Below, piece after piece: positions 662 to 43,641 of a stretch of 64,000 nucleotides of DNA (the stretch's first letter is position 1; the number at the start of each line of letters is the position of its first letter). This stretch comes from Spirochaetaceae bacterium (GTDB lineage: Bacteria > Spirochaetota > Spirochaetia > DSM-2461). The notes under the pieces were generated by a model, which did not search any database, was not told where the DNA came from, and saw only the letters and a program-made list of their open reading frames with translations. The position numbers and the translations under genes were made by a program. The stretch covers positions 1,280,001 to 1,344,000 of the forward strand of contig OZ245056.1 of NCBI GenBank assembly GCA_965224705.1, written 5' to 3'.

Positions 662-935
662 GTGAAGATGGCCCAGGTACTGGAAGTGCGTTTATATGGC
701 TATTACCGTTGGATTCGCATGGGATGCCCTGACGAGAAGACGCGGGACAGGGAAATGATTGACGCTATAAGGCTTGTCCAGCAGGAAAACTCTTACAGAA
801 CGGGTTCTCCCCGCGTGCATAAGGAACTAAAGAAAAAGGGGTATGGCATCGGTCACAACAAGGTGGCCCGCCTCATGAGTGAAAACGATTTAAGATGCCG
901 CACTTAAAGAGCTTATATCAGAACGACCGTATCGG
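662..935 (+). pseudogene. IS3-family transposase OrfB N-terminal (HTH) fragment
   Basis: GYYRW...YRTGSPRVHKELKKKGYGIGHNKVARLMSENDL is typical IS3 OrfB. In-frame stop at 905-907, then RAYIRTTVSD. No DDE domain follows. Confidence 0.8.
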
Positions 936-1096
936 ATCCGGCAAATATGCTTAATGGAATATTGTAATTTTTCATTAAAGTTCAACTGTATTGCAAAAGA
1001 TAACACCAACCTGCTTTTTGTCAGCAGCATGGGGTTCGCCTCACTCGCCCCGTTAAAGCCTATGAGAAATAGGTGAATCGCATTCCAAAAGGTTAG

Positions 1097-1226
1097 CGAC
1101 AGGAACGGGACTGTAAAGTGATTATCGCCATCGCCGAAAAAATCCCGAACAACGTGCTCGAGGAAGATCCCAGGCTCCTCATGTGGTACGATCAGGCTGT
1201 AACACGTGTGGGGGGGGGGCGATTAA
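1097..1226 (+). pseudogene. Start-less C-terminal remnant of a large DNA methyltransferase (resembles BREX type 3 PglXI C-terminus)
   Basis: Translates RQERDCKVIIAIAEKIPNNVLEEDPRLLMWYDQAVTRVGGG. This matches my recollection of the conserved tail of PglXI-like methylases; not verified by search. Confidence 0.45.
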
Positions 1227-1260
1227 CTACAGATGGACACAGATTAAATGGAGAGAGAAT

Positions 1261-2667
1261 ATGTTAAAGAATTTGCGCATACAGAATTTTAAGGGGTGGA
1301 AGGATACAGCTTCTATTCGTATGGCCCCCATCTCGCTGTTTTTTGGGACCAACAGCTCAGGAAAATCCAGCATTGGACAGTTTCTGATGATGTTGAAACA
1401 AACCGTTGAATCTCCGGACCGTAAAGCTGTTTTCTATCCGGGCGGTAAGAACTCTGCTGTTCAGCTTGGTTCCTATCAGGAGATGGTCTTTCACCGTAAT
1501 CCGGAAAATAAAATCAGCTTTGAATATGATTGGTGTTTGTCTTCTTCCACTAAGTTTAAGGATCCCAACTCCGGCCAGTCATACACATATAATCAAGTTG
1601 CATTCAATGCTGAGGTTGGACCTGGAAATAAAGAGCAACACACCCGGGTAGTCGACAAATTCCAATACGAGCTAAAAGATTCAGATACTAAGAGCCTTTC
1701 TATCGGTATGGAAAGAAAAGCGGATTCAAAGGCAGAATATAAAGTTGATGCAACAGATTTTTCACTCAAACGCAATAAGGGTCGTGCCTGGTATCCCAGA
1801 GCACCTGTTCGTTTTTATGGATTTCCCGATGAAGTGGTTGCATACCACCAAAATGCTGATTTCGTTCAGAAATTGAATTTACAGCACGAAAAACTATTCC
1901 GGTCCATTTGCTATTTAGGTCCTCTACGTACAAAAGCGGAACGCTTGTATTCCTGGACCGGGATGGAACCCGAAAGTGTGGGCTATGCTGGTGAAAACAC
2001 CGTGGCGGCCATCTTAGCTGCTCGAACTCGAAGAATAAGTATGGGCTATAAAAAAGCAACAAAGCCCTTTGAACAAATCATTGCCATGAAACTAAAAGAG
2101 ATGGGCCTGATAGAGAAGTTTGAGGTTAACCCTATCTCTGAACAACGTCAGGAATATGAGGTTAAGGTTTGCACCAAAGGTTCAAGAGACTGGGTTGATT
2201 TACCCGATGTTGGTTTTGGTATTTCTCAGGTTTTGCCTGTATTGGTGCAGTGTTTCCATGCCCCGGCAAACTCCATTATTATTATGGAACAACCAGAGAT
2301 TCATCTTCATCCCAATGCGCAGTCGGCTTTGGCTGATGTAATGATTGATGTGATCAATTCCAGAGAAAATGGAAAAGACCGAAATATTCAGCTCATCATC
2401 GAGACTCATTCAGAACACTTCCTACGCAGGCTTCAGCGCAGGATCGCAGAGAATATCGTTTCTCAAGAAAAAATATCCGCCTATTTTGCCAATGTCAGCA
2501 GAACACCGGCCAAATTGGAACCATTGCAGATCGATATATTCGGAAGTATTCAAAACTGGCCGGAGAATTTTTTCGGTGATGAAATGGGTGATATTACCGG
2601 ACAGGCCAAAGCTGCCATGAAAAAACGGATGGAACAGAAATCTCAGAATACGAAGGTTTCTGAATGA
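1261..2667 (+). CDS. ABC-type (AAA_15/AAA_21-like, DUF3696-like C-terminus) ATPase of conflict-system type
   Basis: MLKNLRIQNFKG start after GGAG SD. Walker A GTNSSGKS, signature VGFGISQ, Walker B/D-loop IIMEQPEIHLHP, H-loop IETHSEH, C-terminal NWPENFFGD. No TM partner. Confidence 0.85.
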   Translation: MLKNLRIQNFKGWKDTASIRMAPISLFFGTNSSGKSSIGQFLMMLKQTVESPDRKAVFYPGGKNSAVQLGSYQEMVFHRNPENKISFEYDWCLSSSTKFKDPNSGQSYTYNQVAFNAEVGPGNKEQHTRVVDKFQYELKDSDTKSLSIGMERKADSKAEYKVDATDFSLKRNKGRAWYPRAPVRFYGFPDEVVAYHQNADFVQKLNLQHEKLFRSICYLGPLRTKAERLYSWTGMEPESVGYAGENTVAAILAARTRRISMGYKKATKPFEQIIAMKLKEMGLIEKFEVNPISEQRQEYEVKVCTKGSRDWVDLPDVGFGISQVLPVLVQCFHAPANSIIIMEQPEIHLHPNAQSALADVMIDVINSRENGKDRNIQLIIETHSEHFLRRLQRRIAENIVSQEKISAYFANVSRTPAKLEPLQIDIFGSIQNWPENFFGDEMGDITGQAKAAMKKRMEQKSQNTKVSE

Positions 2668-3191
2668 GTTATCCGGATCTGTGTATAGTGGATACGAATG
2701 TTGCCAAAACGGCCAATCTTGCGACTCAGCCTGATCCAGAAACCAATTTTCCGGATGAGTGTATCAATGCTTGTGTTGCAGCCATTGAACATGTCATTCA
2801 AAAGAACGGTTTAGTCATTGATGCGGGAGATGAAATTTTTGATGAATATAGTCAGCAGCTTTCAATGGGCGGACAACCCGGCATAGGCGACAGTTTCATG
2901 AAGTGGGTGCATGATCATCGTTGGACTTTGCCGGAGTCTCAACGAGTTAAAATCACCAAGAATGTTGAATCATACGATGAGTTTCCTGAACATGAGGATT
3001 TAAATTCTTTCGATAAATCCGATCGCAAATTTGTGGCTGTTTCGAATGCACATTCAGGTAAACTAACTATTCTCCAGGCAACAGATAGTAAATGGTGGGG
3101 ATGGAAAGATGCGTTGATTCAATGCGGCATAGCGGTTCAATTTATATGCGAATGCTACATCCAGGCTAAATTTCAGGAGAAAATGGGATAA
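2664..3191 (+). CDS. PIN-domain ribonuclease-like protein
   Basis: N-terminal IVDTNV and further acidic motifs EIFDEY, FDKSDRKFVAV, ATDSKW. ATGA overlap with the ATPase stop. Confidence 0.7.
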   Translation: MSYPDLCIVDTNVAKTANLATQPDPETNFPDECINACVAAIEHVIQKNGLVIDAGDEIFDEYSQQLSMGGQPGIGDSFMKWVHDHRWTLPESQRVKITKNVESYDEFPEHEDLNSFDKSDRKFVAVSNAHSGKLTILQATDSKWWGWKDALIQCGIAVQFICECYIQAKFQEKMG

Positions 3192-3874
3192 TGAAAGACG
3201 ACTTCTTCAAATTCCCTTCAACACCTCATCTGGCCACACTTGAAGACGTGGAAGTCCGGGACAGCAAAGTTTTGTCCGAAGCAGAACGACTGGATTTCCT
3301 GAGACATGAAGTTGTTGTCGAAGAAAAAGTCGACGGTGCGAATCTGGGTTTATCCTTTAATTCAGAAGCTAATCTTTCCCTGCAAAACAGGGGAACTTAT
3401 TTACAAGTGTCGGGTGTGGGGCAATGGAAAAAAATGGAGCAATGGCTAAACCCTAAAATGGATGTGCTATTTGAAAGTATAACCGATCGTTTCATCCTTT
3501 TCGGCGAGTGGTGCTACGCACGGCATTCTGTTTATTACAACCGTTTACCTGACTTATTCCTGGGCTTTGACTTGTATGACAAGCAGGCTAAAAAATTTTT
3601 CTCAACTGAGAGAAGAGATAAATTATTCAAAGAAATGGGAATCTTTGGTGTCCCACAGATTGCTAAGGGCCAGTATAGCGTATCAGACATAGAAAACCTT
3701 TTAACTCAATCAAAAATTTCAGATGAACCTGCAGAAGGCTTATACCTCCGAATCGATCAAGAGAAATGGCTATTAAATAGAGCCAAGCTGGTTCGACCCT
3801 CTTTTATTCAGTCCTTAGAAGCACACTGGTCTTGTTCGGCAATCAAACCGAATCGCCTGGATTCAAATAGATGA
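3191..3874 (+). CDS. ATP-dependent RNA ligase family nucleotidyltransferase
   Basis: Motif I EEKVDGAN, Ia LQNRG, III LFGEW, IIIa FLGFDLY, IV EGLYLR, V RAKLVR. No OB domain. TAATG overlap with the PIN gene. Confidence 0.85.
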   Translation: MKDDFFKFPSTPHLATLEDVEVRDSKVLSEAERLDFLRHEVVVEEKVDGANLGLSFNSEANLSLQNRGTYLQVSGVGQWKKMEQWLNPKMDVLFESITDRFILFGEWCYARHSVYYNRLPDLFLGFDLYDKQAKKFFSTERRDKLFKEMGIFGVPQIAKGQYSVSDIENLLTQSKISDEPAEGLYLRIDQEKWLLNRAKLVRPSFIQSLEAHWSCSAIKPNRLDSNR

Positions 3875-3974
3875 GAGATGCAAAGTGACTAAGTCTCAAA
3901 ACATCTGTGTTTATTCGTGTTCATCTGAAGAAAGCCGACAAGCAGGTGAATTTCACCGATGATGAGAGCAGGCA

Positions 3975-6443
3975 TTATGTTTCACGTGAAACAATATCAG
4001 GTACGACGGCTCCCTCTTCGCCTGGTTGCCGCACAATTCCGATCAATGAATCATCCTCATTAATATTCAGAATACGAACACCAAAAGCAGCCCGTCCCAT
4101 AACAGAGACCTGATCTACAGCAAATCGCAGGGCTTTCCCCTGTGCGGTTATACCGATACAACTGTCTATGTCTTTCACTGGAAGCAGGGCAACAACTTTT
4201 CCTGTCCGTTTATTCGGAGTATATGCCTTTTGCCCTCCGGTTCCTCTTCCATGAGAAAGAAATTCATCATTTCTCGTTCTTTTGCCATATCCCATTTCTG
4301 TTACAAGGAGCATCATTTCATGTTCTCGGACAGGGTAAACACCGATGATTTCATCCTCTTCTGCACATCTTATTCCCCTTACTCCTCTAGAAGCTCTTCC
4401 CATACAGCGTACAGACGATACGGGAAATCGCAACCCCTTCCCCTGGCGAGTTGCCAGAAAAAAGTCTTCCTCTCCTTTAACGAGTACGGCTTCAACAAGT
4501 CGGTCGCCCTCATCCAGATTGATGGCAATAATTCCCCTTGTACGTGCATTTCTAAAGTCGTATGTGGCCACTCTTTTAATCACACCCCTCCGAGTTGCCA
4601 TAATAAGCGTTGTCTCTTTATCAAAGCTCTCCAATGGAACCATTGCTGTAATATCTTCTTCTGGAGCAAATTCAAAAATTGTTTTCAGATGCTTTCCTCT
4701 ACTGTTTCGGGATCCTTCGGGTATCTCGAAAACCTTGATCCAGTACGCCTTGCCTTCAGAAGTGACAAAAAGAATATGTCTGTGTGTTGATGAAAGAAAA
4801 ACATGCTTGATGAAATCATCTTCCTTGAGATCACTGGTCCGGGCCCCTTTTCCGCCACGCCCCTGCTCCTTATATTCTGTTGCTGCAATTCTTTTGATAA
4901 AGCCCCGGTTCGATATAACAACAACAACATCCTCTTCTTCGATTAAATCTTCGAGATTCATCTGTAGAACTTCTTCGTGAACAATTTCCGTCTTTCTTGG
5001 TACTCCATACTTCTCTGCGATTTCCTCTGTTTCATTCTTTATTACTTTGAGGATTTTCTCCTCGCTGGCGAGGAGATCCTCCAGATAAGAAATAGTCTTC
5101 CGTACCTCTTCAAGTTCATCCAGGATTTTCTGTGCCTCAAGACTGGTCAGCTTTTGCAGGCGAAGATCAAGAATTGCCTGGGCCTGTTTCTCTGAAAACT
5201 GATACCTGCCCATAAGATTGGTGCGTGCCATAACGACGTTTTCAGACGTTTTTATTATTTCAACAATTGCATCGATGTTCTCAAGTGCTCTTTTTAAGCC
5301 GGATAGAACATGCTCCTTTTCCCTGGTTTTCGTTAAATCAAAAACACTTCGCCTTCGGACCACTTCCTGCCGATGCCTGACGAATTCGGAAAGCATCATT
5401 TTGAGATTAAGCAGCTCTGGTCTGCCATCAACAAGAGCAAGGTTATTGATACTGAAATTGACCTGGAGAGAAGTCTGAGAAAAAAGCTGGTTCATTACAA
5501 CTTTGGGACTTGCATTTCTTTTTAGCTCAATAACAATCCTTATTCCCTCTCGATCAGATTCGTCCCGTAAATCGGATATTCCATCAATTTTCCTGTCTCT
5601 GACAAGTGCCGCTATCCGCACCATCAAGGAAACCTTGTTTACCTGGTAAGGAAGCTCTGTAACGATGATGGCAAATCGATCATTCTTCATCTCCTCAAGT
5701 TCATAGCGAGCCCGAAGAACAACCTTGCCCCTGCCTGTATGGGCTGCCAGTTTGTATCCCATATCGCCATAGATCAAACCCTCTGTCGGAAAATCCGGGC
5801 CTTTTACATATCCAAGTAATTCGTTGATTGAAAGATCCGGGTTCTCAATCAAGGCCGCTATAGCTGATGAAATCTCCTTTACATTGTGGGGGGGCATATT
5901 GGTTGCCATTCCAACAGCAATGCCGCTGGCACCATTGATAAGTAGATTAGGAACGGCCGCCGGCAATACAAGTGGTTCCGTCATGGAATCATCATAGTTT
6001 GGACCGAAATCAACGGTTTCCTTCTTAATGTCTCGAAGCATGGGTTCTGCAATACTCGCCAGACGGGCTTCGGTGTATCGCATGGCCGCTGGCGGATCAC
6101 CATCGATGGATCCAAAATTTCCCTGCCCCTGAACCATTGGCACTCCAAGGGAGAAATCCTGTGCCAGTCGAACCAGTGCGTCGTAAATAGATTGATCCCC
6201 GTGAGGATGAAATTTGCCCAATACATCGCCGACAATGCGTCCACATTTCTTGTACGGCCTATCATGACGCAGACCCATTTCACTCATGGAGTAAAGGATC
6301 CGCCGATGCACAGGTTTCAGCCCATCGCGGACATCGGGTAACGCCCGGCTGACAATGACAGACATCGCATAGTTCAAATATGACTCTTTTACTTCATCCT
6401 CAATAGCAATGGGTATAACCCGGCTTTGTCCCTGTTCATTCAT
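3975..6443 (-). CDS. gyrA: DNA gyrase subunit A
   Basis: [36 protein letters not shown] active site, GyrA-box-like QGRGGKG, beta-pinwheel repeats. Confidence 0.98.
3978..3993. promoter_or_regulatory. parS site (ParB-binding centromere)
   Basis: Perfect 16-bp palindrome TGTTTCACGTGAAACA matching the canonical parS, about 6 kb from oriC. Confidence 0.9.
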
Positions 6444-6453
6444 TGAGCAGCTC

Positions 6454-8367
<1,914 letters not shown>

Positions 8368-8442
8368 TTATCCTAAAAAGAAGACTTCCAATGCTACCAT
8401 TTATTTTTTTCAAAGTCTACTATTCATGTTCTATGGAGAGTT

Positions 8443-9831
8443 ATGATGGACAATGATTACAAGGTTTTCTGGGATGAAGCGACTCGTCAACTGTTGAAAG
8501 AGAATAAAATTAATCAGCAGGAATATGAAATGTGGTTTCTCAAAATGCTTTACACCGGTCAGGAGGGACATTCTCTTATTTTCAGCGTACCATCAAAGTT
8601 TTATCGAGATCAGGTAATATCCCGCTATCTTGTACTGGTGGAAGACCGATTATCAGAACTCTCCGGGTCGAACCTATCCTTGAAATTCGAAATAAGAAAT
8701 TCAAAAAATGATAGTTCGGACGGCGATACTGCGGAGAACCGAGTAATAAAAACCTCGTCTGCCAGGGATTCAACGGCTGATACTGATCAGGAGCGTAAGC
8801 CACACAGTCAACTCCGGGGAGATTATACATTTGATCAGTATGTTATTGGCAACAATAACTCATTTGCTGTCAGTGCAGCTCAAGCAATCAGCACTGCTCC
8901 TGGAAAGAAATACAATCCCTTCTTAATTTATGGCGGAGTTGGTCTGGGTAAAACTCATCTCATGCAGGCCATTGGCAGTCATATCCACTACTCAATGATC
9001 AAAAAAAAGGTTGTATATATTACTGCTGAAACGTTCATCAATGAATTTATTCAATCAATACAAACGAATACTCAACGTATCTTCAAGAATAAATACAGAA
9101 AAGTTGATGTTCTCCTTATCGATGATATCCACGATCTTCACGGTAAAAAAGAAACCCAGGAAGAACTCTTTCACACATTCAATGCATTGTACGATGCCAG
9201 AAAACAACTGGTATTCACCTGTGATAGACCTCCATCTGAACTCAAAAATTTCGCAAGCCGATTACAAAGCAGGTTTGATCTGGGATTGAATGTTGATCTT
9301 CAGCCTCCAAACTTTGAAACTCGATATGCAATACTGAATAAGAAACTGGAATCCATACAGGTTGATATTCCTGAGAAAGTAATCGATCTCATTGCCCGCA
9401 ATGTTACATCCAATGTTCGAGATCTTGAGGCTTCACTTACAAAGATGGCAGCTTACAGTGATCTGGTGGGTAAAAAGATTACCCTCGAGATAGCAAAACA
9501 TCAGTTAAAAGGTGTCTTCTCGGGGATTTTGAGTCCAAAAATAACCATAGATAGGGTACAAAGAGCTGTTTCTGAGTATTTTAACATTACACCTGCTGAT
9601 TTGAAATCAAAGAAACGAACAAAGCAGGTAACTTTTCCCCGACAAATCTCCATGTATATAATCAGGGAGATAACTGACTTCTCAACAACTGAAATCGGAT
9701 TAGAATTTGGTGGAAGAGATCATACGACTGTTATGCATTCCTGCCAGAGAATTGAGAATCGAATGAAGATCGACCCTACTATTGAGCCTTCAATTGCAAA
9801 CCTGATACGTACAATTAAAGAAAGTGGATAA
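8443..9831 (+). CDS. dnaA: Chromosomal replication initiator DnaA
   Basis: YNPFLIYGGVGLGKTHL, LLIDDI, QEELFHTFNAL, FGGRDHTTVMH. Confidence 0.98.
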   Translation: MMDNDYKVFWDEATRQLLKENKINQQEYEMWFLKMLYTGQEGHSLIFSVPSKFYRDQVISRYLVLVEDRLSELSGSNLSLKFEIRNSKNDSSDGDTAENRVIKTSSARDSTADTDQERKPHSQLRGDYTFDQYVIGNNNSFAVSAAQAISTAPGKKYNPFLIYGGVGLGKTHLMQAIGSHIHYSMIKKKVVYITAETFINEFIQSIQTNTQRIFKNKYRKVDVLLIDDIHDLHGKKETQEELFHTFNALYDARKQLVFTCDRPPSELKNFASRLQSRFDLGLNVDLQPPNFETRYAILNKKLESIQVDIPEKVIDLIARNVTSNVRDLEASLTKMAAYSDLVGKKITLEIAKHQLKGVFSGILSPKITIDRVQRAVSEYFNITPADLKSKKRTKQVTFPRQISMYIIREITDFSTTEIGLEFGGRDHTTVMHSCQRIENRMKIDPTIEPSIANLIRTIKESG

Positions 9832-40832: not shown

Positions 40833-42007
40833 ATGGATTTAATCACAGAACGACCATTCAAACAATTCTTTGACGAGATTCAGGGATCGACGATCAAGAC
40901 ACTCTGAGTGGCTATGCCTTTCCTGTCTGAATCTGTAGTGAACAACTACATGATTGAGTTTCTTGTCAAACGTAAGACAAAGCTGATTTTTATTACAAAC
41001 CTATCCTCGCTACACATTGCCATGTCGCTCTCTAATCCAGCAAAGCCGCTTCTTAGACTTATGAAGAAACTTGAGAACCGAGTAGAGATAAGAAGAGCAC
41101 AGAATCTTCATGCAAAGCTCCTGCTCGCTGATGAGTGGAGAGGCCTCGCAGGGTCATCCAATTTAACGCAAGGCGGAGACCAAACCAACTGGGAACTTAA
41201 TTTCATGCTGCGAAGGACCAAAGATGATAAGACCAAAATCGCAGAGCTGATAGATTGGTTCGATAGTCGACTTACACAAAGTATCTCTGTAACGAAGAAG
41301 GACTTAGAGGCTATTGAGAAATCATGGAGTATGTACGAAGGGATGCGAAATAGCATAAGACCAGAAGTATGTCTCGGGGGAGAATACTGGAAGAAATTAC
41401 AGCAATTCGCCCATAGGCAAGAAGTTAAATTCGATACAGCACATAAATGGCTAACGGAAAAGGACTCCGAAAAAGAAATAACAAAGAATACAAAGAACAA
41501 GCTGATATTTCTTCGCAACCTTGGTGTCGTATCTGGCTGGGACAAGGATAAAGTCTATATCGCTATACCAAAACCTGAGTTTGTAGACGACCGACTAAAG
41601 AGTGCAAAACTTATTTCCAATCATGTCACTAAATTCAGTGCATTGATCCAGGCCATGGAGCCTGTCGGACTTACGCCTCACGCTCGATTTTTGCCCTTTT
41701 TCCCTGCTGCTGCGTTGCCAAAATACTCACGTAGCCCAGCTACGCTCCGTTTTTGTCGCCTTGCATCAGGAAAAAATCATCAAAAATCGCCTTGAAGTCT
41801 TAAAGTCCGACAGACTCCATGTGTAGGGTGAAGCAAGCTACCTATAAAGATCTTGAGGATTTGCGGTACCCGTGGGTTCATGGACGAACCCACATTATTG
41901 GGGCGAAGTGTGCCCGGCATGACCAATATCCACAGGAATCAAAGGACAAGGATGTTAAAGGTGAAGGGGGAACATGCAGTCGTTCTGTTGGAACGATGAG
42001 TATCTGA
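40833..42007 (+). pseudogene. Phospholipase-D-family (HKD) nuclease, inactivated by a nonsense codon and a MITE insertion
   Basis: LHAKLLLAD...GSSNLT. In-frame TGA at 40905-40907 (TL*VAMPF). Removing the MITE rejoins IQAM to CRVKQ in frame. Confidence 0.75.
41658..41817 (+). mobile_element. Family A MITE, core A1 (160 bp), CATG duplication
   Basis: CATG|GAGCCTGTCGGACTT...AAGTCCGACAGACTC|CATG inside the PLD gene. Confidence 0.92.
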
Positions 42008-42413: not shown

Positions 42414-43641
42414 GGTAACTTGTCAAGTTAACGGTCCACTTTTTTCATGAAACTCATGATGACCTGTCTTTCAAGCTGTCAAATGAATCCCTATGGCCTC
42501 ATTGGCCGATCGTCCACCTATAATATCCGCCGTGGGCAGTTGTTTACCCAATCCTGTATCTCCCTGATCTCCTTCTTGCTGTAGCACCCTATATCACTAC
42601 CTCCGGGTATGAATCGCCGTACCACGCCATTGGCATTTTCATTGCTTCCCCGCTCCCACGATGAGTATGGGTGCGCGTAGTAAATAGTTGATCTCTTGCC
42701 CCGGGTCAGGCAGGAGCGTTCCATCTTCTGGCTGTCCATAAATTCACAGCCGTTGTCGCATGTGATTGACTTAAACACCTTCCGAAACTGCCGACTGCCC
42801 AGCTTTCTCTCTATCTTATCCAGAGTTTTTACCAGGCTCTTTGATGTCCCGTCGGGCAGCTTTTCCATCATGATAAACCGTCCTGATCGCTCAAGGAGAG
42901 TCATCAGAGTTTGTTTGCCCCTGCCTTCAGCTCCGACAATGCTATCGATTTCCCAATGACCAAATTCTTCCCGTTTTTCAATATAATCCGGTCGGGTTGA
43001 AATACTCTTCATGGCTGACTTTGCTCTGTTGTGCTTCTTATAGCCTTTTGAGCCCTTCTTATGCCTTCTTTTGCCCCGGAGCAGGCAATCCCTGGCATCC
43101 CCCAGCAGACCTTCATGAATATACCGGTAGAGGGTTCTTGTGCTGATTCTTGTGTCCGTTGGCCATGAGAGCTTCTTATAGTGCATGATGACCGCGTCAG
43201 GGCTGTATTTCTTTGCAAGGAGCTTTCTGATTTCCTTGACAAGTTTGTAATCGGCACCAGGCTTCAATTCGGGCCCCTTTGCTTCAAGCTCCCTACGAGC
43301 CTTCCCCTGGGCAATATCTGCGCTATAGGTCTGATACTCAGATAAGTCACTATTGCGAAGCCTGACGGCCCCTCGGTTGAGTTCTCTTCGTATGCTTCTT
43401 TCACAGCGATCCAGGATGCTCGCCATCTGTTTGATTCTTATCCTGTCCTTCCCTTTTTTGCGACTCATTCTTTCCAGAATAAGCCGTTCTTCCCAGTTGA
43501 AGTATTTCCCCCTTCTACTGCTCGTGTTATTGTACTCTTGCCCCATGTTAACTCCTGTTTTGTTTGTTTTAAGTAGTATACATGAGTTTCATGGGGCTTT
43601 TTTACCCTCCTTATTGCGGACAGTTAATGTTACAATTCACC
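42414..43641 (-). mobile_element. IS30-family insertion sequence (transposase 42518-43546, frameshifted near C-terminus)
   Basis: SIRRELNR, GHWEIDSIVG, ITCDNGCEF, YAHPYSSWERGSNENANG. Imperfect 26-bp TIRs GGTAACTTGTCAAGTTAACGGTCCAC / GGTGAATTGTAACATTAACTGTCCGC. Confidence 0.9.

Follow-up and report, generated by a model that had tools for sequence, protein, structure and literature searches.

The window, by which we mean the whole stretch of 64,000 nucleotides that was analyzed, carries near its start a cassette of three + strand genes. The features of the cassette and its immediate surroundings are as follows.

662..1100, + strand: insertion-sequence debris (context only), an HTH_21 transposase fragment with stops plus repeated short pieces
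1261..2667, + strand: gene 1, soluble ABC ATPase with a C-terminal DUF3696, 468 aa; HEC-03 ATPase, PADLOC PDLC04148
2664..3191, + strand: gene 2, PIN (VapC-fold) nuclease, 175 aa; HEC-03 PIN, PADLOC PDLC04147
3191..3874, + strand: gene 3, ATP-dependent RNA ligase (PF09414), 227 aa; its clade occurs next to HEC-03-type PIN genes
3975..6443, - strand: intact gyrA (822 aa), convergent downstream neighbor (context only)

The initial annotation had described three intact, translationally coupled genes with retained catalytic residues, and this description held. All three ORFs were found as described; genes 1 and 2 share a 4-nt ATGA overlap (2664-2667), and genes 2 and 3 overlap at TAATG (3189-3193). 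K35 of the ATPase lies in a Walker A motif (residues 29-36), D10 is the first of the PIN acidic residues, and K46 of the ligase falls within KxDGxN. A GTG at 1183 that would lengthen gene 1 was dropped because homolog alignments start at the ATG at 1261. A single contig of sequencing run X3, which comes from a study separate from that of the best-holding run, spans 1229-3761 with 81 differing letters and no gaps, so the reading frames of the cassette are not an assembly artifact. In 40 of the 116 rows of this comparison there were 29 changed codons, 15 silent and 14 non-silent, a tally too partial for inferring selection. Within 1100-3900, word depth in run X3 was ~29x on the contig carrying the cassette and 3-4x on the gyrA contigs; this depth is not a copy number, and that sample may include a further strain or element with a near-identical cassette. 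Coverage by RNA-run contigs was confined to short stretches of the three genes, which does not demonstrate transcription, and a scan for promoters and terminators stayed at chance level (6 found and 6.2 expected).

Decayed neighbors, also claimed at the outset, were present on one side only. Upstream, the HTH_21 fragment (662-907) has in-frame stops, and the short pieces at ~940-1100 are multi-copy elsewhere in the genome; downstream, gyrA is intact and is followed by gyrB and dnaA. This gyrA-gyrB-dnaA cluster (3975-9831), which the cassette adjoins, is an unusual site for defense cargo. A Pfam scan of the 45 other window ORFs of at least 110 aa gave no recognizable defense family except for one PLD-like and one Macro-domain ORF, and this copy of the cassette is outside any defense island. 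At 40908-41792 and 42521-43546, where long ORFs are scarce, a PLD-like (PLDc_2) ORF lies near an rve-type transposase ORF. Farther upstream, an aBig_2 (atrophied-Ig) repeat protein at L230:8128-12572, whose end corresponds to window position 572, is encoded as two ORFs (991 aa and 480 aa) with a stop and a short gap between them; it is possibly a large gene that has been split.

The trio had been put forward as a candidate new system. This did not stand, since the ATPase and the PIN match the two models under which PADLOC catalogs HEC-03. The ATPase matched PDLC04148 at 425 bits over nearly its whole length (residues 1-461 of 468, model positions 1-457 of 458); the runner-up PADLOC model was Menshen NsnB, at 198.5 bits. 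Its Pfam matches were AAA_15/AAA_21/DUF3696, and its motifs include a signature-like DVGFG (316-320), a Walker B variant, hhhhEQPE (339-346), and a His switch (381-385). The PIN matched PDLC04147 at 104.6 bits (model positions 4-152 of 159), and this was its sole PADLOC match. The A and B labels that PADLOC gives to HEC-03 are swapped relative to the available text of Payne et al. 2024 (bioRxiv 10.1101/2024.01.29.577857), where HEC-03 is a two-gene ATPase-PIN system that blocks phages in E. coli. In the part of that preprint available to us, HEC-03 lowered plaquing by several orders of magnitude, both genes were required, and induction of the two-gene form was apparently toxic. The reading of the cassette as a defense module is thus supported by its match to a pair that is anti-phage as two genes, and the cassette is very probably an HEC-03-like defense.

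The PIN itself had no Pfam match, PIN_3 included, and weak matches to PIN_3 (PF13470) appeared in 21 of 115 PIN homologs (E cut-off 0.05, lowest E 1.7e-4). Its structure model, built with 115 sequences, reached a pLDDT of 97.2, and the top structural matches to the model were VapC toxins (Z 8-9.1, rmsd 3.4-4.2, 117-131 residues aligned), the best at Z 9.1 and rmsd 3.6 over 125 residues. Foldseek with the model gave no match at E ≤0.001, and a sequence profile of the PIN retrieved no PIN structure. The predicted fold is VapC-like, as supported by the model. Acidic residues D10, E61, D117, D120, and D141 were kept in 85 of 85 PINs of the ligase-bearing branch and were conserved equally in the ligase-less HEC-03 branch. 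The PIN is a long form; its insert at about residues 19-23, together with Q138, K143, and W147, is specific to the ligase-bearing branch. We infer that the ATPase is the infection sensor and the PIN the RNase effector.

The third gene encodes a bare nucleotidyltransferase domain that matched Pfam RNA_ligase at 104.5 bits; nothing else in the genome matches PF09414. The ligase motifs (I with K46, Ia, III, IIIa, IV, and V) are all intact, and every one of 29 PIN-linked ligases retains KxDGxN. Its nearest solved structures, at weak E values of 0.004-0.007, are archaeal circularizing enzymes, described in the available part of PMC2577357 as ligases that circularize single strands; JGI's automatic label for homologs is 'ATP-dependent RNA circularization protein'. 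A single-sequence model of the ligase had a pLDDT of 35.1, and a complex prediction for PIN plus ligase (score 0.00, controls not folded) counts neither for nor against an interaction. The ligases in phage records were all distant (8 records, ≤27% identity). As far as our searches reach, this clade of 227-aa stand-alone ligases with no healing partner is biochemically uncharacterized, and a literature search, outside which most subscription journals lay, found no experiment on the ligase-bearing form.

Whether the ligase accompanies the ATPase-PIN pair elsewhere was examined by gene neighborhood. GTDB genomes were scanned with the PIN, and the best 80 of 143 relatives (58-79% identity) formed a close set. 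In this set of the best 80 of 143, the ATPase lay upstream of the PIN in 79 of 80 loci, the remaining locus having 4 bases upstream. Among the 79 loci with at least 300 downstream bases, 76 had the ligase immediately after the PIN. At least 750 bases were available in 75, and the ligase was close to full length in 70 of them; the remaining 5 were 2 with ligase stubs and 3 with no ligase. In the two stub loci, the ligase is reduced to an N-terminal remnant (approximately L003:8537-8671 and L015:8528-8623) beside an intact ATPase and PIN, which suggests that loss of the ligase is tolerated. Fifteen named phyla were represented among these best 80, one archaeon included, and 7 loci were unassigned. 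On plasmids, 12 records had a PIN of 34-37% identity; of the 5 opened, 4 had the ligase third and 1 had an HNH nuclease. The latter, Acinetobacter plasmid CP119202.1, carries an HNH endonuclease in the ligase's slot (L083:6526-7284) and an ATPase annotated in two pieces. In the reverse search, all plasmid ligases of at least 37% identity were on PIN-bearing records (9/9).

More distant relatives gave a different picture. Short, more distant PINs, used as seeds for a metagenome scan, defined a two-gene branch, in which the ligase was present in 0 of 64 loci (from the best 80 of 477 relatives) and no conserved substitute third gene was found. For an even sample, we ran the HEC-03 PIN model against 1,986 genomes of six phyla, of which 56 matched, centre genomes included; of the resulting 60 loci, 48 remained once 6 from centre genomes and 6 that were fragments or ran into contig ends had been set aside. 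The ligase was present in 19 of these 48 and absent from 29, and the top two matches to the model in the sample both lacked it. A Pfam scan of 22 ORFs downstream in ligase-less loci found no ligase; the ligase profile derives from the close set, so these counts may miss highly divergent ligases. The co-occurrence that the initial annotation had set as its test was therefore recovered across many phyla, at nearly every close locus and at a substantial share of evenly drawn ones. The ligase is a real partner for part of the HEC-03 family, and the three genes are a widespread three-gene variant of HEC-03, not a new system.

On a tree of ATPase plus PIN (66 rows, FastTree, midpoint root, 7 of 60 loci omitted), the ligase label needed 5 changes, compared with a mean of 21.7 after shuffling, and fell on two separate branches. 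This tree is compatible both with one gain of the ligase followed by losses and with repeated gains. In the ligase tree, 29 PIN-linked ligases were set apart from 3 healing-linked ones, and the ligases of the two PIN branches interleaved. Matches to the HEC-03 PIN were patchy, with 7 of 401 genomes positive in the window's phylum, and a distant blastn search of complete E. coli genomes with the Aeromonas trio gave no match. The patchy spread, the plasmid copies, and the insertion-sequence debris fit a mobile cassette.

The 3 healing-linked ligases come from the next tier of similarity (30-33% identity), and in all 3 records opened the ligase sat beside a gene with HD and AAA_33 kinase domains, with no PIN. 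These plasmid-borne pairs (L167-L169) are sister repair operons of the ligase clade. Their ligases carry the same motifs, but the operons have an HD + AAA_33 gene and no ATPase-PIN pair; with no such gene adjacent, membership of the window's cassette in a ligase plus HD-kinase repair operon was rejected. That no kinase or phosphatase accompanies the trio, as noted from the start, was upheld by tblastn with 3 of these HD + AAA_33 proteins, which gave no match in the 80 close loci (best of 143) or in the genome. AAA_33 had no match over the cut-off in this genome and RtcB was not found there; at 95.2% completeness, healing genes that appear absent from the genome are not excluded.

Among the best 80 of 143 close loci, BREX genes were found in 26 and bracketed the cassette in 19; type I RM genes were found in 7. 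PglXI, BrxH, PglZ, BrxA, and BrxC were each confirmed on one representative. The gene order resembles that of BREX type 3. HmaC lay beside 10 loci, all of them ligase-less (L179, L183, L208, L210, L213, L091, L102, L138, L158, and L163), whereas BREX matches occurred beside the ligase branch only (L001-L080), a split that is suggestive only since flank lengths differ between the sets. A host-system preference is possible, with two-gene HEC-03 beside HmaC and the ligase branch inside BREX.

Self-repair is the role that we favor for the ligase, by a modest measure, and we hold the complete account, HEC-03 in a three-gene form with a resealing ligase, to be the best explanation at close to an even balance. 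In this account, the ATPase and PIN would jointly block phage, as demonstrated for the two-gene relative. The ABC ATPase would sense a phage product and switch on the PIN, by analogy with PARIS and OLD-type systems; the trigger could plausibly be a product that inhibits the BREX or restriction system by which the cassette is often surrounded. Sensing of infection and activation of an effector by related ATPases are discussed in the available part of Payne et al. 2024. The PIN, to judge from its VapC fold, would cut RNA, most likely tRNA, and stop translation. The dedicated ATP-dependent ligase would then reseal the 3'-OH/5'-P breaks made by the PIN without a healing enzyme, and would thereby buffer leaky activation or permit recovery as an accessory that is dispensable for defense.

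The chemistry of the ends bears directly on this last step. ATP-grasp ligases require 5'-P/3'-OH ends, according to the accessible part of PMC7824862. The initial proposal that the PIN leaves such ends is backed for VapC by the available text of a review (PMC7180214), which also gives tRNA as a VapC target, but is contradicted by that of PMC6459853, where VapC products carry a 5'-OH that the ligase could not join unhealed. The apparent lack of a healing partner in the 80 close loci of the clade and in the genome would count for resealing. Counting against it, an HNH nuclease, an effector, can occupy the third slot, the nearest solved ligases are, weakly, archaeal circularizing enzymes, and the present copy stands outside any defense island. 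In addition, because 29 of 48 sampled HEC-03 loci have no ligase and their PIN acids are equally conserved, toxicity appears manageable without it; and since two-gene HEC-03 defends in the available account, the ligase is not needed for defense in that tested form.

Three other roles for the ligase were considered. It could be a second weapon that adenylates or circularizes PIN-cut RNA, blocking phage repair and making the damage irreversible. Phages mend cut tRNA via Pnk and Rnl1, and a bare nucleotidyltransferase domain whose nearest solved relatives circularize single strands, the JGI label on its homologs, and a slot exchangeable with an HNH nuclease would all suit such an enzyme. We consider this role unlikely: those solved relatives are only weakly akin in structure (E no better than 0.004), the label is automatic, and ligases of the closest sister clade occur beside a healing enzyme, which indicates a repair ancestry. 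In its boldest form, which we regard as improbable to a similar degree, the ligase would set the fate of PIN-cut RNA in an abortive-type defense by AMP-capping or circularizing fragments against phage Pnk/Rnl repair, a counter-counter-defense present at ~40% of the HEC-03 loci sampled and serving as a backup nested in BREX.

It is less probable still that the ligase repairs host RNA cut by other nucleases, whether from a phage, a competitor, or a neighboring defense system, and is itself just co-regulated cargo that accompanies HEC-03. The interleaving of ligases from the deep and main PIN branches, which points to swapped partners, and the ability of two-gene HEC-03 to function alone in the available account would be expected from such an arrangement. 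Against it, the ligase clade was never found away from the PIN on plasmids (9/9 records), its position and coupling are fixed, and tree distances correlate (Spearman 0.62, with 0 of 1000 permutations as high), although co-transfer alone would suffice for this correlation. Lastly, the ligase-fold protein might not act on RNA at all and might be an antitoxin at the protein level, working through binding or AMPylation of the PIN or the ATPase. There is precedent in the MNT-HEPN antitoxins, and the branch-specific features of the PIN (the insert and the three residues named above) could form a partner surface. We judge this very unlikely, as every RNA-ligase motif is conserved as for nucleic-acid ligation and the branch-specific residues may stem from shared ancestry alone.

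Resealing by the ligase matters for the question of whether RNA-cutting anti-phage defense is reversible dormancy or suicide. The same ATPase-PIN defense with and without a dedicated ligase is a natural comparison, and reversal of RNA cutting by a system's own gene is thus directly testable. At about 40% of the sampled loci, a two-gene definition of HEC-03 overlooks a third gene.

Several known systems resemble the cassette in part. Menshen (NsnABC) likewise has a DUF3696 ABC ATPase, the NsnB of the runner-up model, followed by a PIN-fold protein, but its sensor is a DUF262 protein and its PIN is inactive and joined to a second nuclease, neither of which occurs here. Membership was rejected because no DUF262/ParB NsnA gene is present (upstream is insertion-sequence debris) and gene 2 encodes a lone PIN domain whose acids are intact. 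PARIS (AriA/AriB) shares the combination of an ABC ATPase and an RNase effector; for AriB, 5'-P/3'-OH ends are expected and the 3'-OH has been confirmed. Its effector is Toprim and it has no ligase, whereas gene 2 has no AriB or Toprim match and is predicted to fold as a PIN; the AriA match here is partial (105.6 bits), and membership was rejected. A row resembling the trio appears in the available part of PMC9122126 (Rousset et al. 2022; Table S1A, row 2753), where an E. coli P4 satellite hotspot (NZ_KE701472) lists a DUF3696 ATPase, a hypothetical protein, an RNA_ligase, and another hypothetical protein; the row is unnamed, the main text as available never mentions 'ligase', and the likeness lies in the table annotation alone.

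HEC-03 is the closest characterized system, with an ABC ATPase gene followed by a VapC-like PIN gene and near full-length model matches here. The tested form has two genes, and Payne et al. 2024 never use the term 'ligase' in the main text as available; the cassette here adds the ligase, and its defense activity is presumed by analogy. The three-gene arrangement has its own precedent. According to the available text of PMC5499597 (Matelska et al. 2017), some PIN_3/COG1569 genes share operons with an ATP-grasp ligase, an ATPase, and an HNH nuclease, and Burroughs and Aravind 2016, as cited there, proposed a conflict system in which the ligase neutralizes nucleases. These operons, which are a prediction only, agree with the cassette in combining an ATP-grasp RNA ligase, an ATPase, and a PIN, and in the role given to the ligase. 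As to PIN class, gene 2 itself gave no PIN_3 match and some of its homologs gave weak ones; as to the HNH gene, it is absent from this locus and takes the place of the ligase on a plasmid. Both the architecture and the repair hypothesis were apparently anticipated in 2016, so far as the available account goes. The trio in all likelihood belongs to this predicted ligase-ATPase-PIN(-HNH) family, and the experimentally validated HEC-03 is now linked to the 2016 computational prediction.
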